A stretch of 64,000 nucleotides of DNA from contig NW_025964223.1 of NCBI RefSeq assembly GCF_023055435.1, positions 47,120,001 to 47,184,000 on the forward strand, read 5' to 3'. How positions within the stretch are numbered: position 1 is the first letter of the stretch; each line of letters begins with the position of its first letter. Shown here piece after piece: positions 22,180 through 64,000 of the stretch. The position numbers and the translations under genes are program-made. Source of the DNA: Haliotis rufescens (lineage: Eukaryota). Below the pieces are notes generated by a model. The model did not search any database, was not told the DNA's origin, and was given only the letters and a program-made list of their open reading frames with translations.

Positions 22180-22262
22180 AGCCGCCTCCGTTCTCTAGCG
22201 GTAGAGCGTCCGCCCGGAAAGCGGAAGGTCCGGGGTTTGATCCCCGGACGCGTCATACCAAA
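22180..22262 (+). mobile_element. SINE family B, 5' tRNA-like head only
   Basis: Near-identical to 37637-37717. Confidence 0.8.
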
Positions 22263-25094: not shown

Positions 25095-25233
25095 NNNNNN
25101 NNNNNNNNNNNNNNNNNNNNNNNNNNNNNNNNNNNNNNNNNNNNNNNNNNNNNNNNNNNNNNNNNNNNNNNNNNNNNNNNNNNNNNNNNNNNNNNNNNNN
25201 NNNNNNNNNNNNNNNNNNNNNNNNNNNNNNNNN
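25095..25233. other. Assembly gap (N run)
   Basis: 139 N. Confidence 1.
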
Positions 25234-25329
25234 GTATATTACTACACCCACACTCACACCGATACACCCACACACACATCCGCATTAAAATCCCGCTCAA
25301 AGCATTCAAACAGGTAAGCATACAAACAG

Positions 25330-25510
25330 GTAAGCATACAGGACGCTCACAGCAATCTCATACAGGACACTCACAGCAGTTTCATACAGAACACTCACAG
25401 CAATCTCATTCAGAGCACTCACAACAATTTCATACAGAACACTCACAACAATCTCATTCAGAACACTCGCAGCAATCTCATACAAAACACTCACGGCATT
25501 CTCATACATG
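25330..25510. repeat. 24-bp minisatellite
   Basis: CATACAG(G/A)ACACTCACAGCAATCT variants, about 7 copies. Confidence 0.85.
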
Positions 25511-28500: not shown

Positions 28501-29121
28501 GTATTGTTTTTAAGTTCCATTTGTCATACCCAACATTTACAAGTTTCACGCTTTTCTCAACCCATTAACAGGAGGTTAATCAATCTCTCACTTTCATTTC
28601 AAGTGTTGCCACTTTCATTTTAATTTTAGAAATAACGTTATCAGTCAGGTCAGGTTTAGAAGGTTTTAATCAATGCTTGCCTGACTTTCCTTTATACATT
28701 TTGTCCAATCTGCACCTGTGGGTAGTAGGTCGATCTACGTCATGACAGTCCACGGGTTAATAGTAGTAGTTTATTCAAAAGCTGAATAAGGCTATCAGCA
28801 AAGGCCATTATACAAAATAATAACAAAAATACTCGAAACGCATGTTCGATTATGGACACATTGTCACGGTATAGGGGTTAATATCTGCTAGGCCCATCGA
28901 TACTAGCTGGTGTAATGAGCTGTGTAAGTAGTCGTCAGCTATTAGTCTAGTCAAGACTCGATCATGTGCTTGTGGCCGTGATAATGCTGGATTGCTGCTG
29001 ACATCAATGTTCACTGTTACTCACTTGCTCACTAGTTGTTCATGAAGACATGCAGTATGTTCATTTTACAGAGTTTTTCCTGTGTTCCTGTTCTAGGTGC
29101 ATCCGTTTTCATATTTGCGCC

Positions 29122-32181: not shown

Positions 32182-35100
32182 TCACGAAACGTAGATGTCA
32201 TTTTCTACCATGCAACATTTTTCTTTGGGCATATCTCCGCATTCTAAGCTCCCGTTGGCAGGAGTTTCATGGGTTGCGGGTCCGCTACAGTAGATATCGT
32301 TTTCTGTCATGTCACAAGCAGCAGCCTCAACTTTTCCACAATCGACGAAGCATGTATCCGTATTTTCATTACTAGCATCATCAGTTCTTTCATCAATAAG
32401 TTCCTTCTTTGATGGACTGTTTAAACACGTATCCATCATTTCGGTATTCTTCTCACATTCCTTGTTGTCGCCTCGTTTGAATCGAGAACTCCTTGGTAAC
32501 CCTTTAGAGTATAGGTCGTGTTCTGGTCTGGTGTCTGCCTGCTTGGATGTAGTTCCTGTATCTTGTACTTTTTCGGTACTTCCGGTTGTACTTGTTAAAA
32601 ATTGGCCAAAGTAAGTGTTAGTCGGTGCAGTTGACTCAGAAGCATTGAGTTGAAAGTGTATATGAGCGGAACTGTTGTCGGGAAGGGCATGCCGCCTTTG
32701 TTTACGTCTATAATGGAATAATAATGCATGATTAGTTGTAGTGACGCTCCGTGGTACATGTATGACTTTCACAAACTCTCATTAAAACTCTGAACAACCA
32801 TGTCGACTCATGAAGTACACGGTGTAATCAGGCATTTAGTATAATAGAAATTGATGTATTTCATCAGTATCATACAACTCTTATTTAAATGATGGAAGAG
32901 TGATCGTACACACGTCTCAAAGATGCCGTCCCATCTGTGGAATCGTTTATACAAATACAAAGGTTTGCCTAAGGCCGAACTTTGATAGTTTAGTCACGCT
33001 GATAGAGTTCATTTGTATCGCCTCATGAATAATGTTAAATACGAAGAGCTCGACGAAACGTTTTCGTAAGTTGTAAAACTGTGAGTGTTGGAAAGCAAAA
33101 ATGCTAATTCATAGCCATTCGAACACGCTTAGTAATTCAAGTAACAATATTTTTTAATAAAAAGTTTCATATTTTTTAGACTTTAAAGTTTTAAATGACC
33201 ATAAAAAAACTTCTCTATTATATTTTGTTCTGTATAAGCCATGCATTTGTGGCAAAATATATATTTATTCAAACATTTGTATTAGTATATAATAATTATT
33301 TCAAACATATTTACCTGCAAAGAACAATTGTGATAACCACAACAGTAAGTACACCACCACTCGCTGCACAAGCTGCCACAATTAAATCCACCGATGCTGA
33401 AACTGTAAGATCAGTAATGTTCACAAATCATTCGATGGTTTAAAAAAACAAACGCAATCCTACTCTTTGTCAAATATTTTAAAACGACGCCTATTATGGA
33501 TAGCGAAACCCCAAATATAGTAGAATCATACTGAAGTGGGAAAATGTCATAAGCGTTCATAATAATGATAATTAAATGCACTGAAACTCTTCTACCTTAA
33601 GGAACAGTTGTACCTATGTGCATAGTTGATATTGTGGACGTTAAACCTTTAGAGTGTTGCTTGACTGAAAAAGGAACCAACCCGCCAGCCGGTCAATCAA
33701 TCAATCAATTATAGAGGCCTGCATAAACAGTATGATATATTTTATGCAGGGCTTTATTGGGCCGATGTGACACTAACAAACGTGTATATACAGATAAATT
33801 ATGCATGTGGTTTTAAATTATTTTGGTGCGTAGTTGTTATTTTGGAGATTGCGCCTTCGAGCTGCTGATTGACATACCACTAGATACCACTCGTACTACA
33901 CCACACAGCGACCGTATGTATTCACAGGTGATGAAATAATGTAGTGTATACAAACACATGAAGTCCTGGCGATAATTATATTAAAATAATTAAAATATAA
34001 TTACTCGTCGATGATTTCGAAGGCCACGGTGTTGATTTACTTGCAGATGCATCGGTCGGAAAAGATGCTGTAACTGGAGATGACTGCGCCCTCGACGTTT
34101 CATTCACGTGTCCTGTGAGAATAGCAACATTATTAACAATTAGGTCCTGATCATCCTGGATTCAGAAATCATTTACACCACGGGACTGATGTGCATGCAA
34201 AAATGTGGCCGCTGGCAGACATTCTACATGTATTGGCGATAATTATATTATATTGTTTGACATATCGTAGATACCCAGCTGCATATTTATATTAGTATAG
34301 TGTGTAATTAATGAAACCGATTCGCATCCATTTGATTGCAGGGGTCTCCTAAAATCGAGTGATGTTATAACTGATATTCGTATATCGGATTTGTTATCAT
34401 TACAAAAACGTTATAAAGATTATGTACTATGTCTACCAATCTTTATCTGGGATCACATATATAATCGGAAGGTGTGTGGAAACAGTATTATCAGTACTTA
34501 GCCTGCCTTCTTAAAATGGTGTGTGTATGACACTCAATGGTAACGCCCCCTATTACCTTTAATTGGTACCGGCATAATTTATGTAAAATCAAAATAATCC
34601 ACTTGTATCCTCTAGTGTCTTATCATAATTTGGTAATATAAATATAAACAGACGTCCAAAAGAAACTTTACCAACTGAAAATAAGAATTTCAGACAAAGT
34701 ACAATTTTTTTTTATGAAGTCTATCTAAAACACATAACCTAAATACAACAATAGTGTTTGCAGAAAATGTTAATCGTCTGTTACATGTTTGCGAGATAAC
34801 ACGCGAAAAAGTGAAAAACACGTGCACCACGGACAACTGCAAATGCACGTGCGGGTAAGGGTATAAAACGATTGCAACGGCAAATCAGACATCCACAGTG
34901 ATAAAAAACACAAAAGAAATGCCACGACTCACAGTCGAACAACGTGAACGAGCCTTGGGTATGGTACAGATGGGAGCCACCCACGCCCATATTGCACGAA
35001 CCTTCGGTTGCTCCCGTGTTGCCGTTACAAACTTGATGCAACATTACAGACAGACAGGGCGGCCAGGCCAAGAACAGGCAGACCCAGGGTGACCACGCCC

Positions 35101-38100
35101 CATGATGACCGGTACTTGCGTACCTTGCACCTCCGAAATCGCTTCCTGACAGTGACGTCATCGGCGACAAATGCCTTAGGTCACAGGGTTAGTCGACAGA
35201 CAGTGGCCAGGAGACTCAGGGGTCATGGAATCGGGGCTTTTAGACCATACAGAGGACAGCCATGGACGGCGAAACATCGTCGTCTGCGATTGAGCTGGGC
35301 CCGGACTTTACGACGTTGGCAACGACGTGACTGGCAGAGGGTTGTCTTTACTGACGAAAGTCGATTCTGTATGTTTAGGGATGATGGAAGACAACGTGTT
35401 TACCGCCGAAGGGGTGAACGAACGGCGGCGTGTTGCGTGCAGGAGGTCGTACCATATGGTGGAGGGAGTGTCATGGTGTGGGGAGGGATCTGTGGGAAGG
35501 AGAGGACACTGCTGGTCATCGTTGACGGAAACTTGACAGCTCAGCGGTACATGGATAACATTCTTCGTCCAGTTGTCCTACCATTTCTCCAACAGCATCC
35601 ACGTGGTGTCATTTATCAGCATGATAACACTAAAGCCCATGCAGCCAGAATTGTCACTAACTTCCTCGCAGCCAACAACGTCAACGTCCTGCCGTGGCCT
35701 GCACGCTCACCCGACATGTCCCCCATAGAAAACCTCTGGGACTTGATGGATCGTCGTGTTCAACAACGACCACACTCTCCAGCCAACCGGCAAGAACTGA
35801 TCTTGGCCCTCCAAGAAGAATGACGTCAAATCCCACGTGACCTCATCAGACGACTGACTTTTTCTGTGCGTCGAAGAGTATTTGCGTGTATTGAGGCGTT
35901 TGATGGTCACACACGCTACCAATGACTTGTTATTGAACGTGAGCGATTGTTTATGTACTCTGCCTATTTTGTACCACACCCATCTCGGTCGCGGTATGAT
36001 TGTCATTTTCAGTGTTGATTATGTTGATATATTGAGCTTGTCAATACACTTTACTTCATGCATGTATGTTTTGTTGTTTTTGAGCAAGAGTGATTTCAAA
36101 CTCTGGTAAAGTTTCTTTTGGACGTCAGTTTAGTTTGTATTCTTCCCTCTTAAATCATTACATGATGTAAGTTATGTAAACATGATCAAGGTAAGTATGG
36201 CTTTAGAAAATAGCGCTCCAACTGGCTTGCAGTGTCTCTTCCAAATTAATTAGTGGCGGCTTAATACATCAATTCTATTTTTAACAATGAGGATATTAAA
36301 TATGTTTTCAAATACTATGGGACCGGATGAATGGAATGACTCACAACTCACACAAGTGAACTTTGTTATAATCACTCTTCGTGAGGTTTTTAATCTTTTA
36401 TATAATTATGTTTTACATGTTCACCTGTTGCAGACGGAGGAGAAGTCGATGCCGATGTTTCGTTTGTTGTTGAATCCACTGTAGCTTCCTCTGTTGTTGT
36501 TGATTCATCTTATTGGGAGAAAGAGACAATAGAACAGTAACTGTCGGTATGCACAGCACAGGGCTTTGATTTGTTTAAGCTTGTGTATTCCGTTTAGATG
36601 ATTTGTATGAACCTTTTGCAATTCTGTTCAAAGAAGGATGTTTCAGAAAGATATAAAATATACTTAATGAGTGAGTGAGTATGGTTTTACGCCGTTTTTA
36701 GCAGTATTCCAGCAATATCACGGTGGGGGTCACCAGAAATGGGCTTCACACATTGTACCCATATACTTAATGAAAGAAATTGGTTGCAATATATTATTAT
36801 TTGCTACTAATCCAATGAGTTGTTACGATGCAGCGTGAAAGATTCAAACCCCTGCATACATATCAAATGCAAAATATTAAGTTGAAGAGTTGTTAATAGA
36901 CAAATTACTACAGATCTGTTGAACGTTACAGATGTAACATATATATGTAAAATTAATGTTGTCAGTCTAGTATTATATTACCATTGATAAGACCATTTGA
37001 TTATGTTGTTTTGAAGATAGTATTGGAAAGTTCCGGGCTTTATTTGACAGAGTGGCGGGAGGATAGAGATCGTACAAATGAGTTAAACGTTCGGGAAGCT
37101 AAGCCTGTATGTATCGGGTATATGTATGGGCATATACAACTGAATGTTATAGCATCTATGTCGTGCTGATGTCATACAGTACAGGCGTATAAAGGCAATA
37201 CATGAGAACAAAGGGAAACACACAGCCGAAAGCTGACTATCATTGCTTCTGTGTGTTTAGGAAATCGGTATGGATACATTTTCGTGAAAATGTGTCCTGT
37301 GTATGCCGAATCTGCTTTTGAAAGGAAAAGGTTTGATGCATTCAAGTTTTCGATTACCGCCTGTGTAACTATTATGACACAAAAGTAATTTAGCTCACTC
37401 ACCAAACTTAGTGATTTTATAAGTTGTTTCTATTTACATGCATATGTGGCCGTTATTTACCTTTCCGCACATGTTGTGATCATGCCGAGTGAATGTATTA
37501 CAACTAAACATTATTTCGATACGGATGGGGAAGAGCTAGTTGTAGTGACAATGATAGGACATTCCCGACATGGAGAGCCGTAGGTCATGTTATTCATATA
37601 CATGTACTGAGGAATTGGTTTCAGTACAGATCGAGACCGCCTCCGTGGTCTAGTGGTAGAGCGTCCGCCCGGAGAGCAGAAGGTCCGGGGTTCGATCCCC
37701 GACCGCGTCATACCAAAAGACGTTAAAAGATGGTACTTGTTGTTACCCTGTCTGGCGCTCGACACTAAGGGGCAATAACAAGGACTGGTCGGCTCGGAGG
37801 GTATACTGTGTCTGAGTGGGGTATTCATGTTAAACTGCGGCATGCTACCTCAGTGAGCTAGCACTATCAATCGGCATCAGTCCGGACTAGTACAAGCAGC
37901 CACACAAACACACACACGTTCATGCACGTCGCTATATAAGTGCAATAATCTTGAACGCGACGTTAAACCTCATTTCACCTCACCTTCAGTACAGAACATC
38001 ACTATATATGTGACCAACCGTGAGGTAAGGGACCTCATTGGTGCAAAAATTACAGCATCTTCGGAACTCAAAATTAAGATTCACAAGCTTCAATTCATAT

Positions 38101-41100: not shown

Positions 41101-43142
41101 TAAGCTGATTCTCAAAATAACAAAAACAATAAATTGTCATATTCCCCTTTGATAATATGCCTGCAAAAGATATGAAGAGAACCTAGGCTCACTTAATCCG
41201 CAAACCACTCACTATTGTATTACGACCCGTGAAGATGCAGGGTACACAGGTCTTCAGCAACCCATGCTTGCCGTAAAAGGCGAGTATTCTTGTTGCAAGA
41301 GGTGACTAACGGGGATGGGTGGTCAGGCTCGCTGACTTGGTTGATACATGTCATCGTTCCAAATTGCGTGGATCGATGTTCATGATGTCAATCACTGGGT
41401 TGTCTGGTCCAGACTCGATTATTTTATAGACCGCCGTCATAAAGCTGGAATATTGCTGAGTGCGGCGTTAAACAACAAACAAACAAACAAATACACCCCT
41501 ACCAAAATAAATAAGTACATCTTATGAGGTTACCATGCATGTCTGGCTACATCGATTCGACGTAAAGGGAAGAAATGCACGATAGCGTTCTTCGATCTCT
41601 TTTTAACAATAGTTAAGTTATATCACATTCCGCTGCCTGATACAGATAATGTGCGTGCAGACCGTTGGTTAAACCAACGAGCACGTGTTTGGCGCAGACT
41701 GTTTTCAGAAACAGTCATGCAAACCAGGAGTCAAACCCAAGAACACAGAATCATAGGCTTCTCATGACATGCGATTTTCGTCCCAGACTACTGGATTACC
41801 CGCGCCCCCGTTATATAAAATATATTCGAACACTTCAGGCTAGAGGGCTGCAACACCAGAATGCACTTCATCATCCTTACTCCAGGAATCCACATGAAGT
41901 AAAATGTGAATGAATGAATGTATTATTGAATCGGCGACTGACATCATTAAAAGCAATCGATGTTTAATTTACGTCTCACCTTTGATGCAGGTATAATTTA
42001 TTTCAGCAGCAGCATCTGTGACGTTACAGGTAAGGGTGGATGCGGACACGACTTCACGGCATGACTGTTTCCCATTACAGTTGGCGATCAGGCCATTCTG
42101 GCTGCTGTTGTGAACCTTACTGCACGACGCATCATATTTCAGGCGACATGTCGCGGCGTCTCCATCCCCATACGCCTCTTGCTCGACATGTATCCATTCA
42201 CCGGCAGAACACTGAAGCTGTACTGTAAAGGTTCGCGACAACAACTCTATACATCTGTTCCTAGTTCTGGTGTCACCTTTGAATATAATGTAACTCGTTC
42301 AGTGTCAAATATATTTAGCTAAATATGACACAGTCGTAGGTAAATACTACATACATTTGCAATAATCGAGTTGTAAGTAAATAGTTTCTATAAGCGACTT
42401 GAGCAGTAATGTATTTGTGGCATACATAACCGTAATTCTATCTCAAATAAGGCATTACTGTTGAAATCATGAGGTGTTACTATATACCATATTACTGTTA
42501 GTTCGTTTGTGAGCANNNNNNNNNNNNNNNNNNNNNNNNNNNNNNNNNNNNNNNNNNNNNNNNNNNNNNNNNNNNNNNNNNNNNNNNNNNNNNNNNNNNN
42601 NNNNNNNNNNNNNNNNNNNNNNNNNNNNNNNNNNNNNNNNNNNNNCAATCTCGCTGCACTTTACATCAGTGATTTATCGCTAACATTTCTACGTCTAAGA
42701 TTGATTTAGCCTATTGCATCAATGATTCTGAAATGTTTATTGATGTCTGGAATGCGCCTTTGCTATTTTCCACCTTTTGCTATCTTGATAATTTTGTTGT
42801 CCTTACGTGTACATATAAATGCTCTCTGCCTCATGGCATTCATTCACCTGATGAAGGAGTAGGCATATACTCCGAAACGTTGTGTTTCTCATCAAAAAGA
42901 AATTGACATCCATATATTCTCTTCCTTATGTGTACCACTTCTAAATGCCTTTCATAGACCTGATTCTCAGACGATTGTTATTAAATTAATACCTGATTCA
43001 GAGCATTAGATCTAATTCGAAACTAATTATTTTTTTCTCAAAACATGACATGGCTTCAACAAAAATACTCACAGTTAGAAACCGAAACACAATACACACA
43101 TATCACAATGTGTGTCACCCAAAATATATTGTCAGCAAACAT
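32182..43142 (-). CDS. Gene B: type I membrane protein, complement(join(32182..32707,33315..33402,34005..34112,39349..39669,41980..42276,43073..43142)), 469 aa: signal peptide, SUEL/rhamnose-binding-lectin-like, CUB, S/T stalk, TM, Tyr-motif tail
   Basis: GCGCCATG start; exon 1 MFADNIFWVTHIVICVYCVSVSN|GTGAGT. All introns GT-AG with phases 1,1,1,1,2; 1410 nt open. LQCSAGEWIHVEQEAYG...CNGKQSC...INYTC is the SUEL pattern; C...GSVYLHSPGFP...SSCVVRI is the CUB pattern; TM LIVAACAASGGVLTVVVITIVLC followed by RRKQRR. Confidence 0.88.
34647..36130 (+). mobile_element. Full-length Tc1 (DD34E-type) transposon, 1484 bp, disrupted transposase 34919-~35920
   Basis: 27-bp TIR AAC(A/T)GACGTCCAAAAGAAACTTTACCA with TA on both sides. 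MPRLTVEQRERALG start; FTDES, QHDN and SPDMSPIENLWD motifs; frameshift near 35055 and premature TGA at 35821. Confidence 0.95.
36340..36860 (-). repeat. Dispersed repeat, inverted homologue of 26178-26530 and 57320-57520
   Basis: TATTTGCTACTAATCCAATGAGTTGTTACGATGCAGCGTGAAAGATTCAAAC is the reverse complement of ~26187-26240; other blocks also match. Confidence 0.85.
36671..36760 (-). mobile_element. 5'-truncated SINE family A with perfect 13-bp TSD
   Basis: ATATACTTAATGA at 36658-36670 and 36761-36773; the empty site is seen in the homologue near 57405-57420. Confidence 0.92.
37631..37984 (+). mobile_element. Full-length SINE family B with 11-bp TSD
   Basis: A box TGGTCTAGTGG, B box GGTTCGATCCC; TTCAGTACAGA at 37620-37630 and 37985-37995. 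Confidence 0.92.
38007..38196. mobile_element. 190-bp MITE with ~35-bp imperfect TIRs
   Basis: TATGTGACCAACCGTGAGGTAAGGGACCTCATTGGTGC versus the reverse complement of the right end, TATGTGACCCACCAGGAGAAAAGGGACCTTATAGGTGC. Confidence 0.75.
40016..40165 (-). mobile_element. Decayed MULE/Mutator transposase fragment
   Basis: Manual translation KYIDYIPTTWVRGPWDR*TWNHPANDGHRTNNIEG*HHKMN matches the W..WN...RTNNxxEGWH motif. Confidence 0.7.
40350..40760 (-). mobile_element. Decayed RNase H domain of an I/Nimb-type LINE
   Basis: Motifs in order: HIYSDGS, LSIFTAENSAIYMAL, *VPSQFGIKGNEHA. Confidence 0.7.
41224..41490 (+). mobile_element. SINE family C, near-complete copy
   Basis: GACCCGTGAAGAT...GGAATATTGCTGAGTGCGGCGTTAAAC(AAAC)n. 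Confidence 0.85.
42516..42645. other. Assembly gap (N run)
   Basis: 130 N. Confidence 1.
42845..42884 (+). ncRNA. Minimal type I hammerhead ribozyme in a Penelope-like pLTR fragment (to ~42956)
   Basis: CAC-CTGATGA-A-GGAGTA(GGCATA)TACTCC-GAAACGTT-GTG: stem I CAC/GTG, conserved core, 6-bp stem II, palindromic helix III. Confidence 0.75.
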
Positions 43143-43373: not shown

Positions 43374-43512
43374 NNNNNNNNNNNNNNNNNNNNNNNNNNN
43401 NNNNNNNNNNNNNNNNNNNNNNNNNNNNNNNNNNNNNNNNNNNNNNNNNNNNNNNNNNNNNNNNNNNNNNNNNNNNNNNNNNNNNNNNNNNNNNNNNNNN
43501 NNNNNNNNNNNN
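43374..43512. other. Assembly gap (N run)
   Basis: 139 N. Confidence 1.
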
Positions 43513-43738: not shown

Positions 43739-45213
43739 TACTGAACTGCAAACTAAACGTCACCATGGATAGATATATGAGAAACCTTATTTGTCCAAAC
43801 ACTGTAAACATACTTGAGACATATTAAAAGGATGAAACTTGGCAAAACTGATCATCAAGGTTAAAATTAAAGTGTCAAATGTTATTAAAGTGAAACACAA
43901 CACTATTTTCTGAGAAAATGGCATCACAAGTCGTGTGTCCGCCATGTGCATTGATGACTGCCGTGCAACGTCGATACATTGAATGGATGAGGCTGTTGAT
44001 GTAGGCCATAGTTCAGCTGCAGTTGTCGGCCTTGGTCGGACGTCATGGATCATTCAGCCGTCTTTGAATCTCGTCCAACAGGTGCTCATTGGCATTTAAT
44101 TCGGGATTGAGGTCAGACTACTGCATGGTTCTGATGCCATGGTTCTGCTGAAGGAAGACTCTTGTTGCTCTCGCAGTGTTGGTACGGGCGTTATCATGCT
44201 GAAACTCGTGGTTGCGGCGACGTGCCAAGGTATGGCGTGTGGTCTCAAGACTTGATCAATGTACCGAGCTGCTGTGGCACCATTGCCTCTCCCTGGTTCG
44301 ATGTTCTGGGAGACCACAGGGCCGACCCTCTGTGCAAGACCAATTTCACCCCACACCATGATTCTCGGACCACCCCACGAGTTTCTCTCAACAACACAAG
44401 CATCCGAATAACGTTTCCCACTCTGCCATCTGCTGTTGAGATACAGTAACGGCTCTCGTCTGAGAAGAGGACCACTGCTGTTGGCACCAATGCTGGTGTT
44501 GTGTTGCCCACTAAAGACTGCCCCGGCGATGACGGGTTGTCAGAATGGGTCCTCGGTGTGGCCTGTGACAGTGGAGGTGTTTGCTCGTCAATCGTCGACG
44601 CACGATGTCCGCACTGATGTGTCGTTGATGTGTCCCCATAGTCTGTCGAGCAGTTTCCGCAGCAGTAACAAAGCCATCTTGAAGATGCTGTCGCACAATC
44701 TGACGATCCTGACGTCGGGTGGTGACCCTTGGTCTTCCACTACGTGGTCGGTCATCTGTAGTGTTGGTGGTCTGGTACCGTTGCTGGAGCCTGTATTAGG
44801 TCCTTGCGTGGACTTGAAATGCATTGGCTACTTGCCGGGCGGTTTGTCCACCTTGCAATCGTCCAAGGGCTTGGTGTCGCTGATTTCTTGTCAATCTTGG
44901 CATGTGGTAGCAATTCAATGACGAATGAATGTTATCCGATCTGGGTGGATTTTTAAAGGGCAAGAAATGGGGGAACGAATGTGCATTTCAATTTGCACGG
45001 AACTCACGTGCATCGAGTTACAATGGCCGTTGCCGTAATGCGTTTGGGCGATCGGTTTTATTGTCATCAGCTTTGTTTTTTTATCATCAAATTTCATTTT
45101 GCCGGACAAGGTAATGTTAAATTTTAGAAACTTTGACAAACATTACCCAGATATTTAAATGACAACTTTTCATGCAATGTTACTTGAGGTGACGTTTCGT
45201 TTGCCGTTCATTA
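43739..45213 (-). mobile_element. Degenerate full-length Tc1-type transposon
   Basis: Imperfect TIRs (CTGAACTGCAAACTAAACGTCACC / ATGAACGGCAAACGAAACGTCACC); fragments LFSDESRY, MVWGEIG and TAARYIDQVLRPH in shifting frames. Confidence 0.85.
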
Positions 45214-50866: not shown

Positions 50867-51204
50867 GTGAGGTGAAATGGGATTTAACGTCGCGTCCAAG
50901 ATTATTGCACTTATACAGCGACATGCATGCACGTGTGTGTGTGCTGCTTTTTGTACTAGTCTGGACTGATGCCGATCATATAGTGCTCGCCCACTGAGAT
51001 ACCATGCCGCAGTTTAACATGAATACCCCAATCAGACATAATGTACTGACTCCGAGCCGACCACTCCTTGTTTTAGCCCCTTAAGCCAGAGAGAGCAACA
51101 ACAAGTACCATCTTTTAACGTCTTTTGGTATGACGCGGCCGTGGATCGACACAGGACATTCCGCTCTCCGGGCGGATGCTCTACCACTACACCACGGAGG
51201 CGGT
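50867..51204 (-). mobile_element. Full-length SINE family B
   Basis: Reverse complement of 37635-37984; degenerate TSD CAGG(C/T)GCATTAC(T)CAGT. Confidence 0.88.
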
Positions 51205-53390
51205 CAGGTGCATTACTCAGTCTGTATTTAAGACGTACATAAGTGTAATTCGGTCTCTCTGTCTGTCTGTAAATGCAAAGGTGATCGTTAATTTCCGTGC
51301 TAATATGTTTCTAGGTGTGTTCACAAACCTTGAGGTCACCTTGGATGGAAATGTATATGGCTGTGCGAGCCTGTAACAAAGATATTCTAAATGTTGTTTT
51401 ACGCAGTGTATCATAATAGTATTAATTACTGGTATTTTATCACACGAAAAAATGGAAGTTGGAATTTTAACTGGAAGTTGAAAATTAATGTAATTTGACT
51501 GTAATAGAAAAAAGAAAATACGTGTATGATCGTTTACACTCAAGTGAACAATGATGAACACAGGTCACAAATTGGCGGTTTACTCACTCAGTCATTGAGT
51601 AATGGAGATGTTCCCAGTAGAGGCGGACTTACATAGGTTTACCCTGCATACATGCCACCATCCTCATACACACATTGTGACAACATGGCTGTAAGACAAT
51701 ATGCATGATGATGTGATGATTCATGCGTAGTAAAGATAGTACTCCCGGTCGCACTGTGGTCAAAAACTGAGTCACCATTGCTGAAGAGACCAATTATCAT
51801 CGGAAGCTTGAATTACATCTACACACATGTAGAATTGTTCTTTGTGTTTTTTACTTTTAGGCTTTAAATCGTTTGGGTTTTGCTGGGTTTATTTAAAATA
51901 TAATTATGCATCAGCTGCCAGGAAATACAAAACATGTTTCAAATGTTCTGATATGTGGTATTCTCGTAACAAACAGTCTACACATATCGTATTTCTTTCT
52001 TAAAACTATCTAACATACAAGGAGAGAAAATACATGTTTATTTCTCTTTGTACTTACATAGTATAAAAGACAGCAACATCTGTACAAGCCATCTGAACAC
52101 AGATTTAGTTATGCAATCTTTGGTGAGACAATGCAAAACATATTTTGTCAGATACAATTGTGTATGTCGGTTTGAGTCAACGAATATATACAAATAACGT
52201 GCGTAATATTCATCCTGCATCTGCGTCCCATGTATGTGTAACCTCGTACCAAATCAATTGGTTCGGGTGTGATAATTCACATTGATTTATCACTTATAAT
52301 AAACTGAAAAGCTGACGTTCATTCCCTTGCTATGTATTACAAACCATCATTAAAGGACAGTTGTTGTATAGCCAGTAATGTATGAACGTTATAAAAACCG
52401 TTCATTTCAAGACGAAGCCATTCACTCTCACGAGTTTCCTTGGTAACATCCCATGTTCTCGTACCATCAATCTCCTTCACTCGGTGAATTACGACTAAAC
52501 GAAATAATCCTTCATATATTTATATTGACCTGTATACCGAGGTACGAATAGCATTGAAACATACTATGCTGTGAGCTGTTCTATGTGTACAGAACTATAC
52601 GACACACCTGCCAAAGGGGGTACTTGGGTAAGGTACTCTTCAACTCAGTACTGGCTTGCGAGGAGCGGCTAGAATCCACTGATCGTAGATTACAGCAGAA
52701 TATAACCCCACCGCCCCACCCCACAAAATACGCTTCTGTATGAGTCTTCACAATACACGTACTTATGGGTTTCACTACTAAAGATCTACGATTCACTTAT
52801 TCTCCGCCACAGTAACCGGACGCGCTGTGATATAACTAAAATACTGTTTAACCCACTTCATTCACGTACCTCGCTCAGTGAAACCCACGCTCGCATGACA
52901 GATATCTTTAACGTAGAATGTCCTTGCATACTCCAGTTAGTGTGCTTCATTAGGATTGGTTTCAAAGATAACGCGATTGTCTTCATCCTGAATAAAATGT
53001 CGATTTAAACAAATGTCAAAATTAGACGTGAATATTGTGTTTGGTGGCATGAAAATAATAATACGCACATTTAAGACCATTTGTAAACATATGACAACCA
53101 TCATCTTCACAGTTTTCAAGTATAATAATTTACCAGTACCATATATCCTTTGGTATTGCTATTTATCGATTGCGAAAATTGTATTCATAATGTTGATGTC
53201 TTAATGTACATCCCTCATTATCCGAATACGACTCTGAAACACAGAGATGATACCCTTACATGTAAGGCGTGACAAGTCGTGATGATAGTTGTAATGGTAA
53301 TAAACATCAAAAGATGTTACCATCGATGGCTGGATCGTCATCAACACAAGACGTAAGCTTCATCACCAATACTAGTAGACGTGTCAAGGT

Positions 53391-54150
53391 TTACACAAAG
53401 CTGTGGTAGAGGTCATTGGTAACCATGTCAACCTCCTCTTCTGCTTCACCCTGTGTAGTGATATCTAGGGTAGCCGAAGCAGACACTTCCTCACACTCAC
53501 CACTCTGCTCTGCAACTGTATTGTCATATCCAGAACTCTCATACATATCATTGTCAACCATTCCTTCAACTGTATCGCCCCTGATTGCCTCTTCTCTTTG
53601 ATACAGGTCTTCGGGCATGCTATCTTCATCCTGATTACCGCCATCTGTACTTACATCAAGGTTCTCAGCAGTAGGAGGTCCTCCATTGTATACATCGTTT
53701 TCGGTCATATGACATGTGGAACCTGTACTGTTTCCTGCATCAGAGAGACACCTGTCCATCGATTCAAGGTGATCATTGATCGTTTCGATATCTTTGTCTT
53801 CATTTGAGCCTATCGAATTATCTGTTGATGTAATACTGCCTGGCTGTTTGGTCGTAAATGTGTTGTTGTCTTTCATGTTTAATCTATAGCTGTGTGGCAA
53901 TACTGTAGAGTAGCTGTCTTGTACTCGGAGCGGGCTGGTTCCTTCTTCTGTTTTTGATTCTGTATGCAATGCCACATCCCCATTTCCAGCTACGAATTCT
54001 GGATCTATGATGAAATAATGTTGACTGTCGTCATTCTTTCGTAAACCATTGTGATGTTTTCCATTGTCGACAGAGTTGAGCTCAAGATGTCTTCCAAAGC
54101 TACAGTTGCGGGGAGAAGTTACAGAACGGCGGGTTTTACTATTTTTACAC
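53391..54150 (-). CDS. Gene C terminal exon: acidic cytoplasmic tail paralogous to gene B (upstream exons not found in window)
   Basis: Phase-2 acceptor GTATTGTAG|G gives R-CKNSKTRR; open for ~250 codons. Shares MDRCL/MDTCL, CHMTENDVY/CDMTENDIY and MVDNDMY, MVTNDLY/MVENDIY with gene B. Confidence 0.82.
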
Positions 54151-54167
54151 CTACAATACACAAGAAG

Positions 54168-55001
54168 TAAGACGAGTTCTATGGATGAACAACTTCTTTA
54201 TTACAATTGGTGCGACGTTTCGGTGTAGATCCTAACACCTTTATCAAGCAAGTGATGGATAGGGCTAAACAACATAGGTATATATACACTTATTGACATC
54301 TAAGTTGTTACAGTGACTAGTGATGGGCACAGAGAGGTGATTAAGCTAATTGGAAGCCAGTGGATGACTGATGAACACAGAGTATACTAGCAGAGTAAAC
54401 AAGCTAACTGATGGAGATGATGGAAGCCACTGTATTAATTGGATGGACAAAGGGATTGAGCAATTAGGTGATGGTAAGCAGGCGGGATGTAATAGCCTTG
54501 GTCTCTGTTCATTGCTGGCTGGATCCTTTTGATGTGGATGGCTTCTAGGAGTTTCCTGATTTTGTAGTCTGATTGGTTGTTGGCCAGGATCTTGATGTTG
54601 TTCCACTGGATGTTGTGATCGGGGTGGGTTTGGGTGTGGTCGGAGATGGCTGATTTTGAGTCATTTTTTTGTACTGAGGTCTTGTGTTCTTTTATTCTAA
54701 TGGGTAGGAGCCTGGATGTTTCTCCTACATAGGAGTCGTCGCAGTCACATTGTATGTGATATACGGCTCCAGCTGGGTCTTCTTTCTTAGATGTAGGGGG
54801 CTTGCCATTGGCGCTGAGGGTGTTCTGGATTGTCCTGCCTCTCTGGAATACTGAATCAATGTTGGCGTGGTCTTTGAGCAGTCTGCGGATCTGGTGGCTG
54901 GCTGTTCCTATGTAGGGAAGACTGATGACGAACGGGGCTATCTGTTTTCGTGGAGGCCGCTCTCTTTATCACTCGAACTTCTAAATGCCACTCAAAGAAG
55001 T
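54168..55001 (-). mobile_element. 5'-truncated Penelope-like element (GIY-YIG endonuclease end, ORF ~54960-54435) with 13-bp TSD
   Basis: Manual translation SLPYIG...GAVYHIQCDCDDSYVGETSRLLPIRIKEH...SAISDH...RKLLEAIHI...MNRDQG; AATACACAAGAAG at 54155-54167 and 55002-55014. Confidence 0.92.
54211..54250 (-). ncRNA. Minimal hammerhead ribozyme, U3-A8 covariant
   Basis: Minus strand TGC-TTGATAA-A-GGTGT(TAGGATCT)ACACC-GAAAC-GTC-GCA. Confidence 0.75.
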
Positions 55002-56613: not shown

Positions 56614-57995
56614 ATTGAATTTTTCTTGATATCAATTATTGTTATTTGAGAAAAGGGAAACTATTTCTAAGCTAATTGGTAATCCAATTTAAAAACAAAT
56701 ACGCTGCACTGTATGCCTGTTTTACATATACATATAAGCAACCTAAAGGTGTAAGTTATGTTGTAGGTATATGTAAACTATTACGTGTGTAACCTTTATG
56801 TTTCGGAAATGAATCAACAGATAATGTACTCGTGTGAGGAGTGACGTGTCATAACAAGAGACATGGATCAGTGTTCTTTATTTATCTTATGTTTCGTTCA
56901 TTTTTTGTCATCAGCAAAAATATAGTTTCTGATAAGAATTTGCGGATATTAATATGGGTTTTTGGTTCTTGTATCTTGGTTGTTGAATGGTTAAACTTGT
57001 TATGTTACCACACCACTTAATTTCTTTTTGGAGTCTCTCAACATGACATAAAAGCTGATTCTCTTTGATGGAACTGAAAAGAAACAATGGTTATGTGTCA
57101 ACACTTATCAAACCCAATTCATTTCCAGTTTTTTCTCGTTAATGAAATGTGTACATCTATTCTAATTATGTACATATAACACTTCATTCTTATAACCATC
57201 AAACTTATGCATAATAAATGAAACGGTGTCACAACACGATAGCTGGTTTATTCATTGGTCATTCTGCTGTTAAGTCTACAACAGGGTCAGTAATTGCTCA
57301 ACATTTTACAGTTATTATGTATACAGTAGTTTGAATCTTTCACACTGCATCGTTACAACTCAGTAGATTAGTAGCAAATAATAATATATTTCAACCAATT
57401 TATTTCATTAAGTATATATTATATCTTTCTGAAACATCCTTCTTAGATCAGATTTTCAAAAGGTTCAAAAGATACACAATTCATCAGAACGGAATACACA
57501 TGTTTAAACAAATCAATGTCCTTAATATTTTACGTCACCTCGGCAATATTTCAGCCATATCGTGACGACCATATTTAATAAAAACCAGAGGAAAGTACAA
57601 CAACGAATCTAGCACATTCGGATCATGTGTGAGGTAACCAAAACCCCAAAACCCTTTTCCATAATGATGACAAAATATCTGCTAAAGTCAATCTGTCGTA
57701 CGATTCCGACTTTATAGTGAGGATACAAGGTTTTCCCGAAATGACGGGATCCGAACAACAAAAGGTTGCTCCAAACGCCGAGGGTTTACATTGTTTTAAC
57801 CAATCCCGAGGCACAGTGTTTTATCTGAAGTGCCTTAGCAGCCGAAAGAAAAATCTGAAACGATATTTTAAACAATTTAATTGTCCAGAATAGAAGAAGA
57901 AGAAGTCTTTATTTGTACCAAGGCCACTGGCCCATATACAATACATACATTTGAAATAGTGTGGTACATGAAAAAAGGTAATGTCAGGTACAAAT

Positions 57996-60900
57996 TTACA
58001 GGTTTACAGGCTTTTCATAATTACGTCTTCTTTCATAGCTGTAATACAGGTATTTACATAGTTTTCCAAGTAATTGTTTACACGAAGATGACAGTAGCGT
58101 TTTAAATTTATGCATATTTGGATTATTGCAAAATGTTGTTGGTAAATACAGATGTCTAATATCGTTGTAATATTCACATTCTAAAGTAAAATGATATTCA
58201 TTCTCTATACTTGTTTCACATATGGGGGCAGAGTCGTAAACGTAAGTCAATATCAGCCCATCTACCTTCGTTTACCTTAAGTCTTAGTAGCCCGGCTCTA
58301 AGCCTTATCAAAACATTTCGATATTTTATTTCAGTAATAATGGAAAGGTATTTTTCTGGTTCCAGGAGACTTTTAAATTCTTTATACAGAATGTACCTAG
58401 AACTAGCCTTGATAGTACTATTCCATGATTGGTAGAACATATTTATCAAAACGTTTTTAAAACTATTCATGAATGATGGTTTGTCGCCAACAGCTTGACT
58501 GAGCCAAACTACTCCGAATCCGTGAGAAAATAATATGGAACGAATAGAAGAAGCATAGTTATGTCGACCACACTTGTCGTTATATACAAGCATATTATAA
58601 GATTTTCTTGGTATCCTATCTTCGTCCATTTCAATCAGTTTTAGCCAATACTTTACAGAACGACACATAGCATTTACATGTAGTGGGTACCGACCGCATT
58701 CCCCATACACAATAGCATTTGGGGTTTGCAAACCAACGTTAAGAAACTTCTTACAAGCCATAATATGCACTTGTTCTATTTTTTCAAATCTGTCTACACC
58801 CCATATTTCCGCACCATATAAAAGAATAGGTTGAATCTGAGTATCAAATATTTTAAAGAAAACTGAAGTGTCAACAAAACCAATCTTCCGTAGATTGCGA
58901 AATATTTGCATTAAAGCTCGTTTACCCCTTGACGCTAGATCTGAAACACATTGGTTCATCTTTGATGTATATGAGAATACAAACCCAAGATATCTATAGG
59001 AGTTGGCGGTTGAAATACGTTTGCCTTTATAGAACCATTTCTCATAAACAGATAACCGCCCTCCTCGTCTAAATACAACAACACTCGTTTTATCTAAATT
59101 AACCGTTAATCCATGTGAATCTGCAAAGTTATCAAGAATATTAAGTTGGTTCTGTAAACCAGTTACTGTGTCAGAGACAAGAATAACATCGTCGGCAAAC
59201 AATAATAATAATATTTCAAACAAGTCAGGAAATAATTGTACGCCGTGTTTCCCATGTGATGAAACATCATTTGACAGTTCATTGATGAAAAAGGAAAATA
59301 ATAGAGGGCTTAATATACAGCCTTGTTTAACTCCGTTAGGACAATCAAAATATTCTGTATAAATGTTATCATTACATCTCACACACGCTTTCACGGAGGC
59401 ATAGATCCCCTTAAGTGCTCTCATCATCTTTCCACCCAAGCCTACATCGTGCAGACACTCCCATAGTTTAAGATGATTTACTGAATCAAAGGCTTTTTTA
59501 AAATCCACAAAAGCAACGTATAATTTCCCTTTTCTTTTCGATAAACATTTGTTAACAATTGCATTCAACGTGAATATGTGGTCAGCAGGAGAATATCCCT
59601 GTCTAAAGCCTGCTTGTGTCTCGGGTAATTTATTTCTTATATTAGCCCAGTTGGTAAGTCTAGAGTTTAAGACACTTGTGTAAACCTTACTAATTGTACA
59701 CAATAGAGATATCCCTCTAAAGTTATCTGGATTATTTTTGTTACCTTTCTTATGTAGTGGAAGGATAATAGCTTTCGTCCAGTTCTGAGGGAATAATCCA
59801 GAATCAAATAACTTATTGAACAAATTTCGTAGGAAAGGAGTTATTACATTTTCACAACATTTTAACATTTCAATGACCACGTCATCAACACCAGGGGATT
59901 TGCCATTCTTTAAACGATTTATAGTCTTGTGGATTTCTGAGTCGGTAATCGGCGACTCCATAATACACTGGTCAATCTCATCAAGTATAAAATCTTCATC
60001 ACATTGACATTCGACTTCAGCATGTAATACATCTGTACACTGAAAAACGTTTGTAAAATGATCAAACCAGCACTCTTTACTTATGTTATTCTTTGTTTCC
60101 CTACGACCTGATATACTCCGTAACTCCTTCCAAAATGTGGTTGAATCAGATAGAGATAGCTTTAGTTTTGTTCGTGTCATAAATTGATAGTTTGATTTTG
60201 CTGTTCTGCAAACATGTTTATACTTGTTTCTCATTTTACAAAAGATTAACTTATTTTCGTTAGATTTCTTCTCTTTGAATTTCCTCATGTATCGCCTCGC
60301 TTCCCGTTTTGCTCGTCTGCATTCACTATTACAAAACCCCGTATTTCGGGGTGAACTTTTAACACAAGTTACCTTCATACAGTCAGCGGCACAAAGAACA
60401 ACATTAACAAATTTTTCGAGGGCAAGATTGAAATCAAAAGTTAAAAGATCGATGAGCTCATTGAAGGATGGACATAGATTTGTTATTCTTCCTATAAACA
60501 CATCACGCTTACGAGGGTTCCATTTATATTTGTGTGTTTTGGTGGAAAGATAATCATCACTTGTAGATGCTTTAGGGAGAAATATGTCCAAATGTAGACA
60601 TACAGGCATATGTTTTGACTCAACTCTTGTATCCACAAACATGGATTGACAACAATTGTGAACATTAACTGAACCTATAAAATAATCGATTACGCTACAT
60701 CCTTGATCTGCTATGTAAGTGAAACTACCCTCTTTGTCTCCAGTTGTCCTGCCGTTGAAGATATATAAATCATGAGTGAAACACAGTTCCAGTAGTTTAC
60801 GACCAAAAGCGTTTACAAAACTATCACATGACTGTCTCTTTTCTACTGGAACGGGTGGTTCATCGGGGAATGCTGCATTGTTGAGGCCACGTTGAGTTAG

Positions 60901-61467
60901 TGTCTCAGGTGGGTTGTTTCCCCCGCCTAGACGGGCATTCAGGTCCCCACAGATGATGACCTCACAGTCTAAGTCACTATGCTCAATCAACCACTGGTCA
61001 ACCAATTCAATGGCGGTTGCCTTTTCAGCTGCAACGTAGAATGTTGAGCCGATGGGTGGAACATACATTCCAAATAATAACAGGTTTTTGCCAAGAGTTG
61101 AGAAATTATCAAATTTAATGCATACGACATTGTGTATATCTAATTCAATCTGTTGGCAGTGCAGGTCTATACGAGTCTTAACCAACAACGTTACACCGCC
61201 TGACAGTCTACCAGCCTTAGCTAGCCTATGAGCCTTTGCAATATATGTGGCATAAGCTGACAGCTGAGGTATGGATAATGCATAGTCAATAAATGTTTCA
61301 ACTAGACATATAATTTCGAAGCCTTTTATGTAATCTAAAAAGTCTAGATCGTCTATTTTGGAAAGAAAACCTTCAATATTCCATGTAACTATTTTGAGGT
61401 TTGATATGGAAATGGAATGTTCTGCACCTGATAATTCAGAAGTGATGGTAGGGGCCGGGCCGTATCC
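57996..61467 (-). CDS. LINE ORF2: AP endonuclease, reverse transcriptase, C-terminal CCHC knuckle; open from 61467; one-base frameshift at 58224-58228
   Basis: TWNIEG, CLVET, SGGV, GDLNAR, IDYF, SKHMPV (APE); FVDFKKAFDSV, GVKQGCILSPLLF, LFADD, YRYLG (RT); RLCP/ICETSIENEYHFTLEC across the shift. Confidence 0.93.
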
Positions 61468-62709
61468 CTAGCTACTGTCCGCGGTAGCACTGTGCTCGGA
61501 ATTGCTGTTGGGGGCGGAGTGGACAGCTCTTAGAGGTTGGGCATTCCGGGAAACAGGAACAGTAGTGGTTGGTTTAGCATGTACATATCTCCGTGTCGAT
61601 TCGTGTCTGGATGTGTTGTCATGGGTACCAGGTTTTGTGACCAGTCTACCATTTTTGTAGTACGCATCTAGGCCTTTGTCCCTCAGATCAGCTAGAGTCT
61701 GTCTCTGGTGCTTGGTTAGGTCGTTAGCAACGCCTATAGCAACACTCCTCAAGGTATGTCTGTGCTTCAGTACTATAATCTTCTCCTCCGTCAGAGAAAA
61801 CTTAGCAATGAGAGGGCGGGGTTTATTGGGTTGCGGCTGTTTGACCCCTATCCGATGCGCCCGTATAATATCTGGGCGTTGCCAATCCTTTGTCTTCACA
61901 TGCTCATTGAGCATAGTAATAACTTTATCCTTGCACATTTCGAAGGTCTCATCAGCTTCTTCAGGCACGCCATAAAATACTACGTTATCCCGACGACTGA
62001 AGGCCTCTAACCTGTCGATATCAGAGTCTTGACTAGATACCTTGTCTTCAAGTTGTTCAACTTTCTGATAGAGTGCATCTATATCACTGTAGATAGTCTC
62101 CTGTCCAAGTCCAACCCATTCTACCTCTGAGCGCACTTCTGAAAGTGAGTTCTCAAGTGATGAACACTTGCTGCTAAGGTCGGTTAGTTGTGATTTAATT
62201 ACACTCATCTCGGTGAACAGAGACTGTCGGAAATCCCGTAGTTCTGCGAGGATATCTGATTTGATCTCAGTCTTTACATTGTTCAAATCTTCCATAGTAA
62301 CAGGCCCTGGGTTGGTCTCAACATCACCAGAGAGTAGTATATGGAGTCTCGTTACATATCCTGCGATGCGGAGACCGTCACAGTTGAGTAATGAAGTCGC
62401 AAAACATGGCCGACATGCATGACTTGTCACAGGGATAAACATAGTGACGTCACATACACTTTCGTGTTCATGTGGTAAATAACGATGAAGATCCTCAACG
62501 GCGTTAGAGAGAACTTGTTTGTTAGCTAGCAGAATTGCCGACAGCATGAGTTGGAGTGTAAGCAAGACCATGCAGACTGATACACGCAGCGGTGTATCAG
62601 AGCACGACATGTGAGGTGTGTACTCAGCGTCCATTGCGATATGTCTCACCTGTCGGGTCCCTGGAGGGTGGGTAAACTGCCCGATCCTGGCTCTATAAGT
62701 CTCAAGATC
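61468..62709 (-). CDS. LINE ORF1: hydrophobic leader, 2A-like peptide, coiled coil, L1-ORF1p-like RNA-binding region
   Basis: LLSGDVETNPGP; heptad-rich segment; RRDNVVFYGVPE, IIRAHRIG, PRPLIAKF and ANDLT motifs. First ATG inside the element is at 62634; the track start at 62775 lies in host flank. Confidence 0.9.
   Translation of the reverse strand, partial: DLETYRARIGQFTHPPGTRQVRHIAMDAEYTPHMSCSDTPLRVSVCMVLLTLQLMLSAILLANKQVLSNAVEDLHRYLPHEHESVCDVTMFIPVTSHACRPCFATSLLNCDGLRIAGYVTRLHILLSGDVETNPGPVTMEDLNNVKTEIKSDILAELRDFRQSLFTEMSVIKSQLTDLSSKCSSLENSLSEVRSEVEWVGLGQETIYSDIDALYQKVEQLEDKVSSQDSDIDRLEAFSRRDNVVFYGVPEEADETFEMCKDKVITMLNEHVKTKDWQRPDIIRAHRIGVKQPQPNKPRPLIAKFSLTEEKIIVLKHRHTLRSVAIGVANDLTKHQRQTLADLRDKGLDAYYKNGRLVTKPGTHDNTSRHESTRRYVHAKPTTTVPVSRNAQPLRAVHSAPNSNSEHSATADSS
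62302..62349 (-). other. 2A-like StopGo ribosome-skipping motif RLHILLSGDVETNPG/P
   Basis: Exact match to the consensus GD(V/I)ExNPG-P with the upstream LL(S)G tract. Confidence 0.92.
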
Positions 62710-64000
62710 TTCATGAACCTTAGGAAACGGGAGTAAAATATATCTTGCTAGCGTACATGTACTTGTAAGAGACATTCATAAAAGCAAAAGTGGATCACTC
62801 ACTGCGCTACTGATACGAAGCTTGTAGGTTCGATGCCAATGAAATATAAGTTACATCTGTCTTTTGATTTAACATTATTCCGCACATTTCTTTAAGTTAT
62901 CATTATATTATGTGCTCTATGAATTCTGTTTAACAGCAAAATATACCAATTGGACTGTGGGACTTTCTATGGATTATCCCTGGGATAGAAGGATACTCTG
63001 GAGACAGAAAACAAGGCACCGTAAAATAGTAGGATGACATCAACATAGGTTGTTTGAAGATATAAAAAGATCAAACGACAATACGATGAAGTCAATCGAG
63101 GTTTATGAATAACATATAAAATACGATACGCGGTTTCAGGGGTCTCTTTTTTCTGTTTCTATGTTGGTAAATCAGTGGAACGGGAATAGCCATTTTACAA
63201 TTATTGAAGGCTATCAGATCATCGATATACATGACGATTATAATTTCTGTTGGCCAAATTCCCTTGTTTTGACTTTGCTAATCAAGACAGTAATTCTGCA
63301 TAATGAAACCGGTAAATACAACCAACTTCTGTAATATCTAAATGTCCTACTCCCACAGTTTAGAAAAATGTTAACTTCGTGGAAGTCAAACATTTGACAT
63401 ATTATTTTCTTCGTATATTCCAGATGAAATTTTCTTTAATTTTGACACATTATCCTCAACTTGAAATGTAACTATATCTATGGTCACCACGTTTACTGAC
63501 AAATGCCCAATGGAACTATATATGATTGATGCTATTAGTGGACGGTGGCGCCTAACCCGGTAACCCTACTGAATTCTAGACTTAGTCTGTACAGTTTTCA
63601 GATCATGTTGCACTTCCGTTTGTATTGTATTTACGTTCCAATCGTCATACACAACATTTACAAGTTTCACGCTTTTCTAAACCCATTAACAGGAGGTTAA
63701 TCAATCTCTCACTTTCATTTCAAGTGTTGCCACTTCCATTTTATTTTTAGAAATAACGTTATCAGTCTGGTCATGTTAGAAGGATTTAATCAATGCTTGC
63801 CTGCTTTTCCTTTATACATTTTGTCCAATCTGCACCTGTGGGTAGTAGGACATGAATGCCCACGGGGTTAATAGTAGTAGTTTATTCAAAAGTATGGTGG
63901 CTGAATAGGGCCATCAGCAAGGGCCATGATACAAAATAATAACAGAAATACACGAGACGCATGTTCGAAGTATGGACACATTGTCCCGGTATAGGGGATA

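Follow-up and report, generated by a model that had tools for sequence, protein, structure and literature searches.

We analyzed a 64,000-nucleotide (nt) stretch of the Haliotis rufescens genome (contig NW_025964223.1, positions 47,120,001 to 47,184,000; this whole stretch is called the window, and positions below refer to it). It contains a 5′-truncated copy of a non-LTR (long terminal repeat) retrotransposon of the apurinic/apyrimidinic endonuclease (APE) type at 57893..62709 (-). A single minus-strand frame of this element encodes, in order, a leader, a 2A peptide (GDVETNPG/P), an L1-type protein of the first open reading frame (ORF1p), one TAG-G stop, an endonuclease (EN) and a reverse transcriptase (RT). 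A sequence-only reading had proposed this arrangement, and it is confirmed: the frame 62775-58216 (-) has the TAG at 61470-61468 as its sole internal stop, with the Pro codon of the 2A site at 62304 and Pfam EN and RT matches downstream. The architecture is not due to chance, because the element holds the only D[VI]ExNPGP match in the window and its stop junction recurs in relatives. Comparison with these relatives indicates that the in-frame stop is a family trait and is not neutral. We consider it quite probable that intact family members combine partial skipping at the 2A site with readthrough of the UAG codon, which would give a rare ORF1p-EN-RT fusion.

Both ends of the element (62709 and 57893) are fixed by an empty paralogous site at 27556/27552, and the span proposed earlier is thereby upheld. 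The empty site is part of a segmental duplication in which 24254-28880 and 56614-64000 are 86-94% identical, with the first copy lacking the element. LTRs are absent, and the simple-repeat 3′ tail and 5′ truncation fit an APE-type non-LTR retrotransposon. The tail consists of AATAAA and a (CTT)n repeat (57893..57913 (-)). Target-site duplications are common but not universal in such elements; here none is present, and 3 nt of the target are missing as compared to the empty paralogue. No second copy of the element was found in the 64-kb window.

The leader comprises 135 codons as preserved (62305..62709 (-)) and includes a hydrophobic stretch at 62583-62527, with a 19-residue Kyte-Doolittle mean of 2.4. 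It leads into a class A 2A/StopGo peptide (62302..62361 (-)) that ends in LLSGDVETNPG/P and carries the GD(V/I)ExNPG/P motif. The six frames of the window contain three NPGP matches; the other two were rejected as 2A peptides, being out-of-frame short interspersed nuclear element (SINE) sequence. Translation of two copies of a dispersed SINE-like repeat yields such spurious NPGP. The 278-residue ORF1p expected from the Pro codon corresponds to the 278 codons of 62304-61471 (ORF1p, 61471..62304 (-)) and is of the L1 type, with a coiled coil, an RNA recognition motif, a C-terminal domain and a low-complexity tail. Human L1 ORF1p was matched by a 50-member family profile (2ykp, 2yko, E 5e-10).

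After the TAG, 1083 codons remain open and contain EN (Pfam PF03372, residues 27-267; 60667..61389 (-)) and RT (PF00078, residues 575-830; 58978..59745 (-)). The RT domain matches Pfam RVT_1 with E 4.5e-37, and its best PDB match is human L1 ORF2p (E 1.5e-33). The first catalytic EN motif, WNIEG, is at codon 29 after the stop and is not preceded by a Met. The first Met after the TAG is codon 134, which is within EN, and 61300-61600 contains no ATG in the ORF2 frame. Nor does any ATG occur close to this stop (within 30 nt), and the element has neither the overlapping stop-start nor the AUG at the head of ORF2 that SART1- or L1-type reinitiation uses; among the elements compared, only the distant L014 has such an arrangement. 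Trees of unlabelled relatives were poorly resolved and do not name the clade of the element, and no RTEX label occurs in the supplement of a gastropod paper; the element may resemble RTEX.

The copy in the window is in all likelihood dead. Its first codons, DLETYRARIGQF (62674..62709 (-)), correspond to the conserved leader N-terminus (family pattern M-x-x-[DE]-x3-[WY]R-x2-IG-x-F) with about 3 residues missing, which shows that it is 5′-truncated and has lost the leader ATG. Relative P0047 is very similar to the element across the first 25 leader residues. An upstream ATG at 62775 was rejected as the start since it is in flanking DNA also found at the empty site. At the other end, a C5 run (58224..58228 (-)), either a lesion or an assembly error in this copy, breaks the ORF2 frame ahead of a CX2CX8HX4C zinc-finger tail, which was placed by alignment to relatives and continues in a second frame to a TAA (57996..58223 (-)). 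Relatives P0151-P0154 have the finger in frame, which led us to reject programmed frameshifting at the C5 run, and ORF2 is open over 1144-1209 codons in the related loci L001, L007, L010 and L012. The length arithmetic agrees with the earlier estimate of 1156 ORF2 residues after homopolymer correction (1156 codons). It is the loss of the leader ATG, together with the frame break before the zinc finger, that makes the copy probably dead, and the three products drawn earlier cannot be made from it.

For intact members we infer the following course. Ribosomes would begin at the leader ATG. At NPG/P some would leave the Gly-Pro bond unformed, so that the leader is released and ORF1p begins at Pro; fall-off or a failure to skip may affect others and would reduce ORF1p. 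The majority would end at UAG and provide abundant RNA-packaging ORF1p, and a minority would decode UAG-G as an amino acid to produce a rare ORF1p-EN-RT fusion of about 1435 residues. No other route to an intact endonuclease is evident, and the fusion would bind the enzyme into the ORF1p particle, i.e., a Gag/Gag-Pol logic in a long interspersed nuclear element (LINE). Readthrough would probably be aided by a helix beginning 7 nt after the stop.

Stop junction in related elements

The stop in the window element (61468..61470 (-)) has the context AGC UAG GGA, which corresponds to the type III readthrough hexamer UAGGGV. Related loci were drawn from a GTDB scan with an ORF2 alignment, using the endonuclease motif only and not the junction type. 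The scan matched 31 stretches, of which 14 were confirmed (L001-L014) and 10 had a readable junction; of the other four, two (L006, L008) begin within EN and two (L009, L011) show decay or truncation. These loci are eukaryote-type LINE contigs in five GTDB bacterial metagenome-assembled genome records, some near full length, and are probably host contamination. A locus scan with a close ORF1 alignment gave 14 pattern matches and no relatives.

In seven loci (L001, L002, L003, L007, L010, L012 and L013) an open frame of 337-691 codons closes at one TAG-G in the frame of ORF2, and five of the seven match the ORF1 profile. Two other loci have a different stop in the same frame: a TGA in L004, after 26 codons that resemble the ORF1 C-terminus at a contig edge, and a TAA in L005, where only a microsatellite is upstream and ORF1 is not visible. 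In L014 (24% identical), ORF1 is in a different frame and ORF2 has its own ATG overlapping the ORF1 stop. With the window included, 10 of 11 readable junctions thus have an in-frame stop without an ORF2 Met, and eight have TAG-G. In each of the 10 in-frame junctions, EN motif 1 comes before any Met. All eight TAG junctions have G at +4, and four match exactly a type III hexamer listed in PMC13517186 (UAGGGV, UAGGUA, UAGGAU), whereas TAGG accounts for 4% of stop triplets in the same DNA. ORF2 identities among the elements with in-frame junctions are 23-44%. The stop appears not to be neutral because its frame, codon and +4 base are kept across this range.

A search with ORF1 and leader returned 4556 relatives at E≤1e-3 among 1.84 billion representatives. 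Among the best 150 ORF1 relatives, 103 have a strict D[VI]ExNPGP, 15 another NPGP and 32 none, many of the latter starting downstream of the site. The EN domain is absent from 149 of them. The sole exception, the predicted protein P0010, is an ORF1-EN fusion and a sister of the element in the EN tree (88/88). It reads Q-D-N-G-R 47 residues before the EN motif. This matches the junction pattern except that Gln occupies the place of the stop, owing either to a mutated codon or to the code used by the gene caller. Searches for fused ORF1-ORF2 proteins gave weak negatives: none occurred among 1565 candidates of a single-sequence search, and of 7262 candidates of a profile search four matched, the sole LINE protein being P0157, which shares only the leader and 2A.

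The leader and 2A have a distribution of their own. The [WY]RxxIG motif is near the N-terminus of 62 of the 118 NPGP-bearing ORF1 relatives. Leaders are 55-157 residues long with variable middles, and 64 of the 69 with the full N-terminal motif contain a hydrophobic 19-mer, in 41 cases outside the 2A region. The N-terminal motif is possibly a nascent-peptide or targeting signal. The leader had no usable match in the Atlas, and the ORF2 side returned generic RT clusters only. All four elements that have both GGCC after the stop (see below) and the ORF1 N-terminal region (window, L001, L003, L012) combine it with 2A and TAG-G. No 2A was found in L007 or in L010, which has a complete TAG-G ORF1, and the 2A region is cut off in L002 and L013. 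In P0157 the leader motif and 2A are directly attached to the ORF2 of a distant lineage. Because the same leader motif and 2A are found on that distant ORF2, the leader-2A unit looks like a movable cassette; and because 2A is absent from the complete L010 ORF1, the two devices appear modular, with readthrough the broader trait. The earlier proposal of a Gag:Gag-Pol control through readthrough gains strong comparative support from the in-frame stop (10 of 11), the TAG-G (eight) and the GGCC at +7; 2A and the leaky stop do not form one unit, as L010 shows.

GGCC tract and 3′-terminal hairpin

A GGCC-led tract that starts 7 nt after the stop (61451..61461 (-)) is a candidate proximal readthrough element. 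GGCC occupies +7..+10 in seven of the 10 in-frame junctions (window, L001-L005 and L012), as against eight of 8819 codon positions elsewhere in the same ORF2s. The Gly codon in these junctions, the third codon after the stop, is always GGC, a codon used for 82 of 452 Gly residues elsewhere, and the next codon begins with C whether it encodes Pro, Arg or Gln. Because GGC followed by C is kept under three different amino acids, the constraint acts at the RNA level.

The candidate distal element is a hairpin at the end of the 3′ untranslated region (57914..57940 (-)), with a core, GGGCCAGTGGCC (57933-57922), that complements the +7 tract. Both GGCC-containing elements that retain a 3′ end, the window element and L012, have a GGGCC-loop-GGCC hairpin just before the tail that is complementary to the tract of the same element, about 3.5 kb away. 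In L012 the predicted pairing has nine consecutive pairs plus two (-20.4 kcal/mol), and 1 and 0 of 1000 shuffles were as good; in the window element it reaches -19.8, with 29 and 97 of 1000 shuffles as good. When the terminal 45 nt of the window element were compared with 4716 16-mers, the best six partners were all at the junction, and the L012 junction was tied second of 5217. The 3′-terminal hairpin is the only good partner that the predictions found for the window +7 tract. Cross-pairing prefers the own end clearly in L012 (-20.4 versus -11.6) and slightly in the window element (-19.8 versus -17.0). A similar terminal hairpin precedes AATAAA at L011:9020-9057, in a locus whose junction is missing. 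The best long-range match of L007, about 370 nt past its apparent 3′ end, was set aside as chance.

With two elements and a palindromic core, we regard the long-range pairing as a lead and not as a result. The full proposal, that EN-RT is made solely as an ORF1p fusion in a widespread group of animal LINEs, with readthrough gated by a helix of the +7 tract and the 3′-terminal hairpin 3.5 kb away, is tentative and on balance doubtful. Hairpins at the 3′ terminus function in RT recognition in other LINEs, and by analogy this one probably does so too. If the proposal is true, the junction helix and the 3′ hairpin would exclude each other, and only RNAs with an intact 3′ end would yield enzyme. 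A passing ribosome would then free the hairpin as RT emerges, providing an RNA-level basis for cis preference and a switch from translation to reverse transcription.

Readthrough could also be real with a local stimulator, either UAG-G with GGCC or a short stem from +7. The match at the 3′ end would then follow from the self-complementarity of both GGCC tracts against an AT-rich background. We give this alternative nearly even chances. GGCC is a palindrome, the long-range pairing could be examined in two elements only, and it was the shuffled window probe that equalled the observed energy in 97 of the 1000 runs. Moreover, the L004 junction pairs better with the L012 end (-11.7) than does the junction of L012 itself (-9.5). 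Predictions give local stems that begin at +7 to +9 in L002, L003, L005 and L012, but at 60 nt only those of L005 (z -2.7) and L012 (z -1.8) are better than shuffles, and in the window element a local hairpin after the stop was rejected (z +1.39, and +1.1 to +1.3). This reading would leave unexplained that each tract fits its own end even though the window element and L012 have different inner bases, and that the best partners of the window 3′ end cluster at the junction.

Competing explanations and other features of the window

Several observations weigh against partial skipping followed by readthrough. The in-frame junctions come from the window and three assemblies and are kin by descent, not independent draws. 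Three of five predicted ORF2 relatives (P0151-P0153) start with a Met at or before EN motif 1, where a true ATG is possible, and nine of 10 junctions have a near-cognate codon before EN. The stop of L005 is TAA, the least leaky stop in data on Moloney murine leukemia virus (MoMLV) (PMC13517186). The window element lacks significant local structure after the stop, and end pairing is absent from both TAG-G elements that keep a 3′ end without GGCC (L007 and L010). At the 2A site, the last 12 residues recur in 10 tested eukaryotic peptides, of which only five skip, four being non-skipping and one showing fall-off only (PMC13405545).

These 2A data bear on an alternative in which the peptide has no useful skipping, either lowering output or being vestigial, with ORF1p made as a leader fusion or from an ATG three codons downstream. 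Like the local stimulator, it is a sub-question that overlaps with the proposed mechanism. The last 12 residues are also identical to those of the 2A peptides of Drosophila C virus and acute bee paralysis virus, which have activities of 0.38 and 0.94, respectively (PMC12338488); the exact peptide of the element was not found in the accessible supplement rows of PMC12338488 or PMC13405545. Of the tested ORF1p-linked 2A peptides, 70% reduced the protein level (PMC13405545), and the 2A in ORF1 of L2A-1_NVe is inactive (PMC3708506). The ATG at 62295, three codons past NPG/P, has a strong context (A at -3, G at +4), but 12 ATGs precede it in the element, and a Met within 10 residues after NPG/P is found in just 23 of 118 relatives. 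The motif, including its Glu, is moreover intact in the 103 relatives with the strict form. We regard a non-skipping peptide as rather unlikely, and skipping in the family as likely but not certain.

Ribosomes that terminate at the UAG might reinitiate without an AUG, a route proposed for mammalian L1, and this would yield free ORF2p and no fusion. Reinitiation is documented for L1 and SART1 (PMC5972666), and besides the near-cognate codons before EN there are stop-overlapping ATGs in L004 (TGATG, L004:79) and L005 (TAATG, L005:65). The frames of these ATGs close after 15 and 6 codons, respectively, with EN in the frame of the stop, and the five codons that separate stop and EN motif in L010 hold no near-cognate start. 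Reinitiation needs neither a common frame of ORF1 and ORF2 with a single stop nor a UAG-G context, and it does not account for the fused form in P0010. We consider it improbable.

TAG|G also fits the consensus of a 3′ splice acceptor. Splicing at this site might link EN to a start further upstream and so allow ORF2 to be expressed, and acceptor-like TAG|G is present in eight of 11 junctions. The TAG cases have no pyrimidine tract (7-12 pyrimidines in the 22 nt upstream) and one to three competing AG just upstream, and the same GGCC motif follows TGA in L004 and TAA in L005. Splicing would not demand that ORF1 ends in frame, and the CAG|G form was not seen among the junctions, making this explanation very improbable. 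A TAG that arose by chance, as a nonsense mutation in an element with a single ORF, as the otherwise damaged window copy and the one fused relative (P0010) might suggest, has a negligible probability, since seven other TAG elements with 23-39% ORF2 identity keep the stop at the same place and 149 of 150 ORF1 relatives have no EN domain.

Elsewhere in the window, 1452-2378 (+) is an uninterrupted 308-codon protein kinase frame starting with MGNT (Pfam Pkinase, E 5e-48), either an intronless gene or a retrocopy. Tc1/mariner transposase remnants are located at 34948-35823 (+) (Pfam HTH, DDE_3) and, judged by eye, at 10147-10842 (-) and 44245-44739 (-). The frame at 54435-54965 (-), which had no significant Pfam match, we take to resemble the GIY-YIG end of a Penelope-like element. 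Two acidic frames (32182-32778 (-) and 53391-54197 (-)) have a repeated M-x-[ED]-N-D-x-Y in common and are perhaps paralogous receptor tails with tyrosine motifs. A dispersed repeat family (37635-37983, 50867-51205, 3021-3364, 22182-22265 and 7392-7622) is probably a tRNA-derived SINE. A marginal Rfam tRNA match at 6769-6827 was not confirmed by ARAGORN. Assembly gaps (N runs; 25095-25233, 42516-42645 and 43374-43512) are all outside the element.

Comparison with known systems

How LINEs translate ORF2 at a low level and retain the product on its own RNA is an old open question. In their accessible portions, reviews of LINE ORF2 translation give only reinitiation (L1, SART1) or leave the route open (PMC5972666, PMC5009743). 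UAG readthrough would offer a third solution in animal LINEs, one that comes with a defined stop context, a motif kept among relatives and a long-range pairing predicted from the sequence. Few natural readthrough signals are known in animals, and the junction is a further candidate. Annotation pipelines would mark intact elements of this kind as broken or place the ORF2 start inside the endonuclease. In a literature search with Repbase and most subscription papers outside its scope, we found neither conserved UAG-G readthrough nor the GGCC motif nor a pairing of the ends described for animal LINEs, and no account of the combination with 2A; the supplement maps of a preprint on 2A in many retroelements (bioRxiv 10.64898/2026.09.24.754024) may bear on novelty. 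The accessible portions of PMC11203168, PMC5753468, PMC4120745, PMC2861651 and PMC10294476 contain nothing on such an ORF1/ORF2 junction. The suggestion in the sequence-only reading that the combination had not been characterized thus stands as far as this search reaches, with each half already in print (PMC13405545, PMC3708506, PMC5405496).

Non-LTR elements with a class A 2A near the N-terminus, as in the window element, are described in PMC3708506 and PMC13405545, and 2A in such elements is also treated in PMC3894237. L2A-1_NVe carries its 2A in ORF1, and Odon 2013 linked 2A to loss of ORF1 (PMC3708506). A 2026 preprint reports nine 2A clusters ahead of the coiled coil of L1-type ORF1p, in limpet and ticks (PMC13405545). 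Unlike what is seen in the window element, neither an in-frame ORF1/ORF2 stop nor stop-codon readthrough is mentioned in the accessible text of these two papers. Group 3 non-LTR elements of Paramecium have ORF1 and ORF2 in one frame, and readthrough of the ORF1 stop was inferred from consensus sequences (PMC5405496). They form a separate ciliate clade, and the accessible text mentions no 2A, stimulator or test (PMC5405496).

With L1 and SART1 the element shares a bicistronic LINE organization and presumably a low ORF2 output, and with L1 also the L1-type ORF1p. L1 has a 63-nt spacer and an AUG, and SART1 an overlapping UAAUG (PMC5972666), neither of which is present in the window element.

The gammaretrovirus MoMLV has the same UAG-GGA, with the structural protein upstream and the enzyme downstream, and type III readthrough contexts generally need a downstream structure (PMC13517186). 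The window element differs in being a LINE, without LTR, protease or evidence of a local pseudoknot, and its helix would begin 6 nt past the stop instead of 8.

Another parallel is the tombusvirus carnation Italian ringspot virus (CIRV), which also has UAG-GGA, makes its polymerase by readthrough and requires for this a 3.5-kb pairing with a switchable 3′-terminal replication element, the two folds being mutually exclusive (PMC3234231). The proximal element of CIRV is a 6-nt bulge of a large stem-loop (PMC3234231), whereas no large local stem-loop with the proximal element in a bulge was found in the window element, where it is the distal sequence that would make up the base helix. The element thus resembles tombusvirus-type readthrough at most and is not a member of that class. 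If long-range gating does operate in this LINE family, it would be convergent with that of tombusviruses, with an upstream 2A leader cassette in addition.

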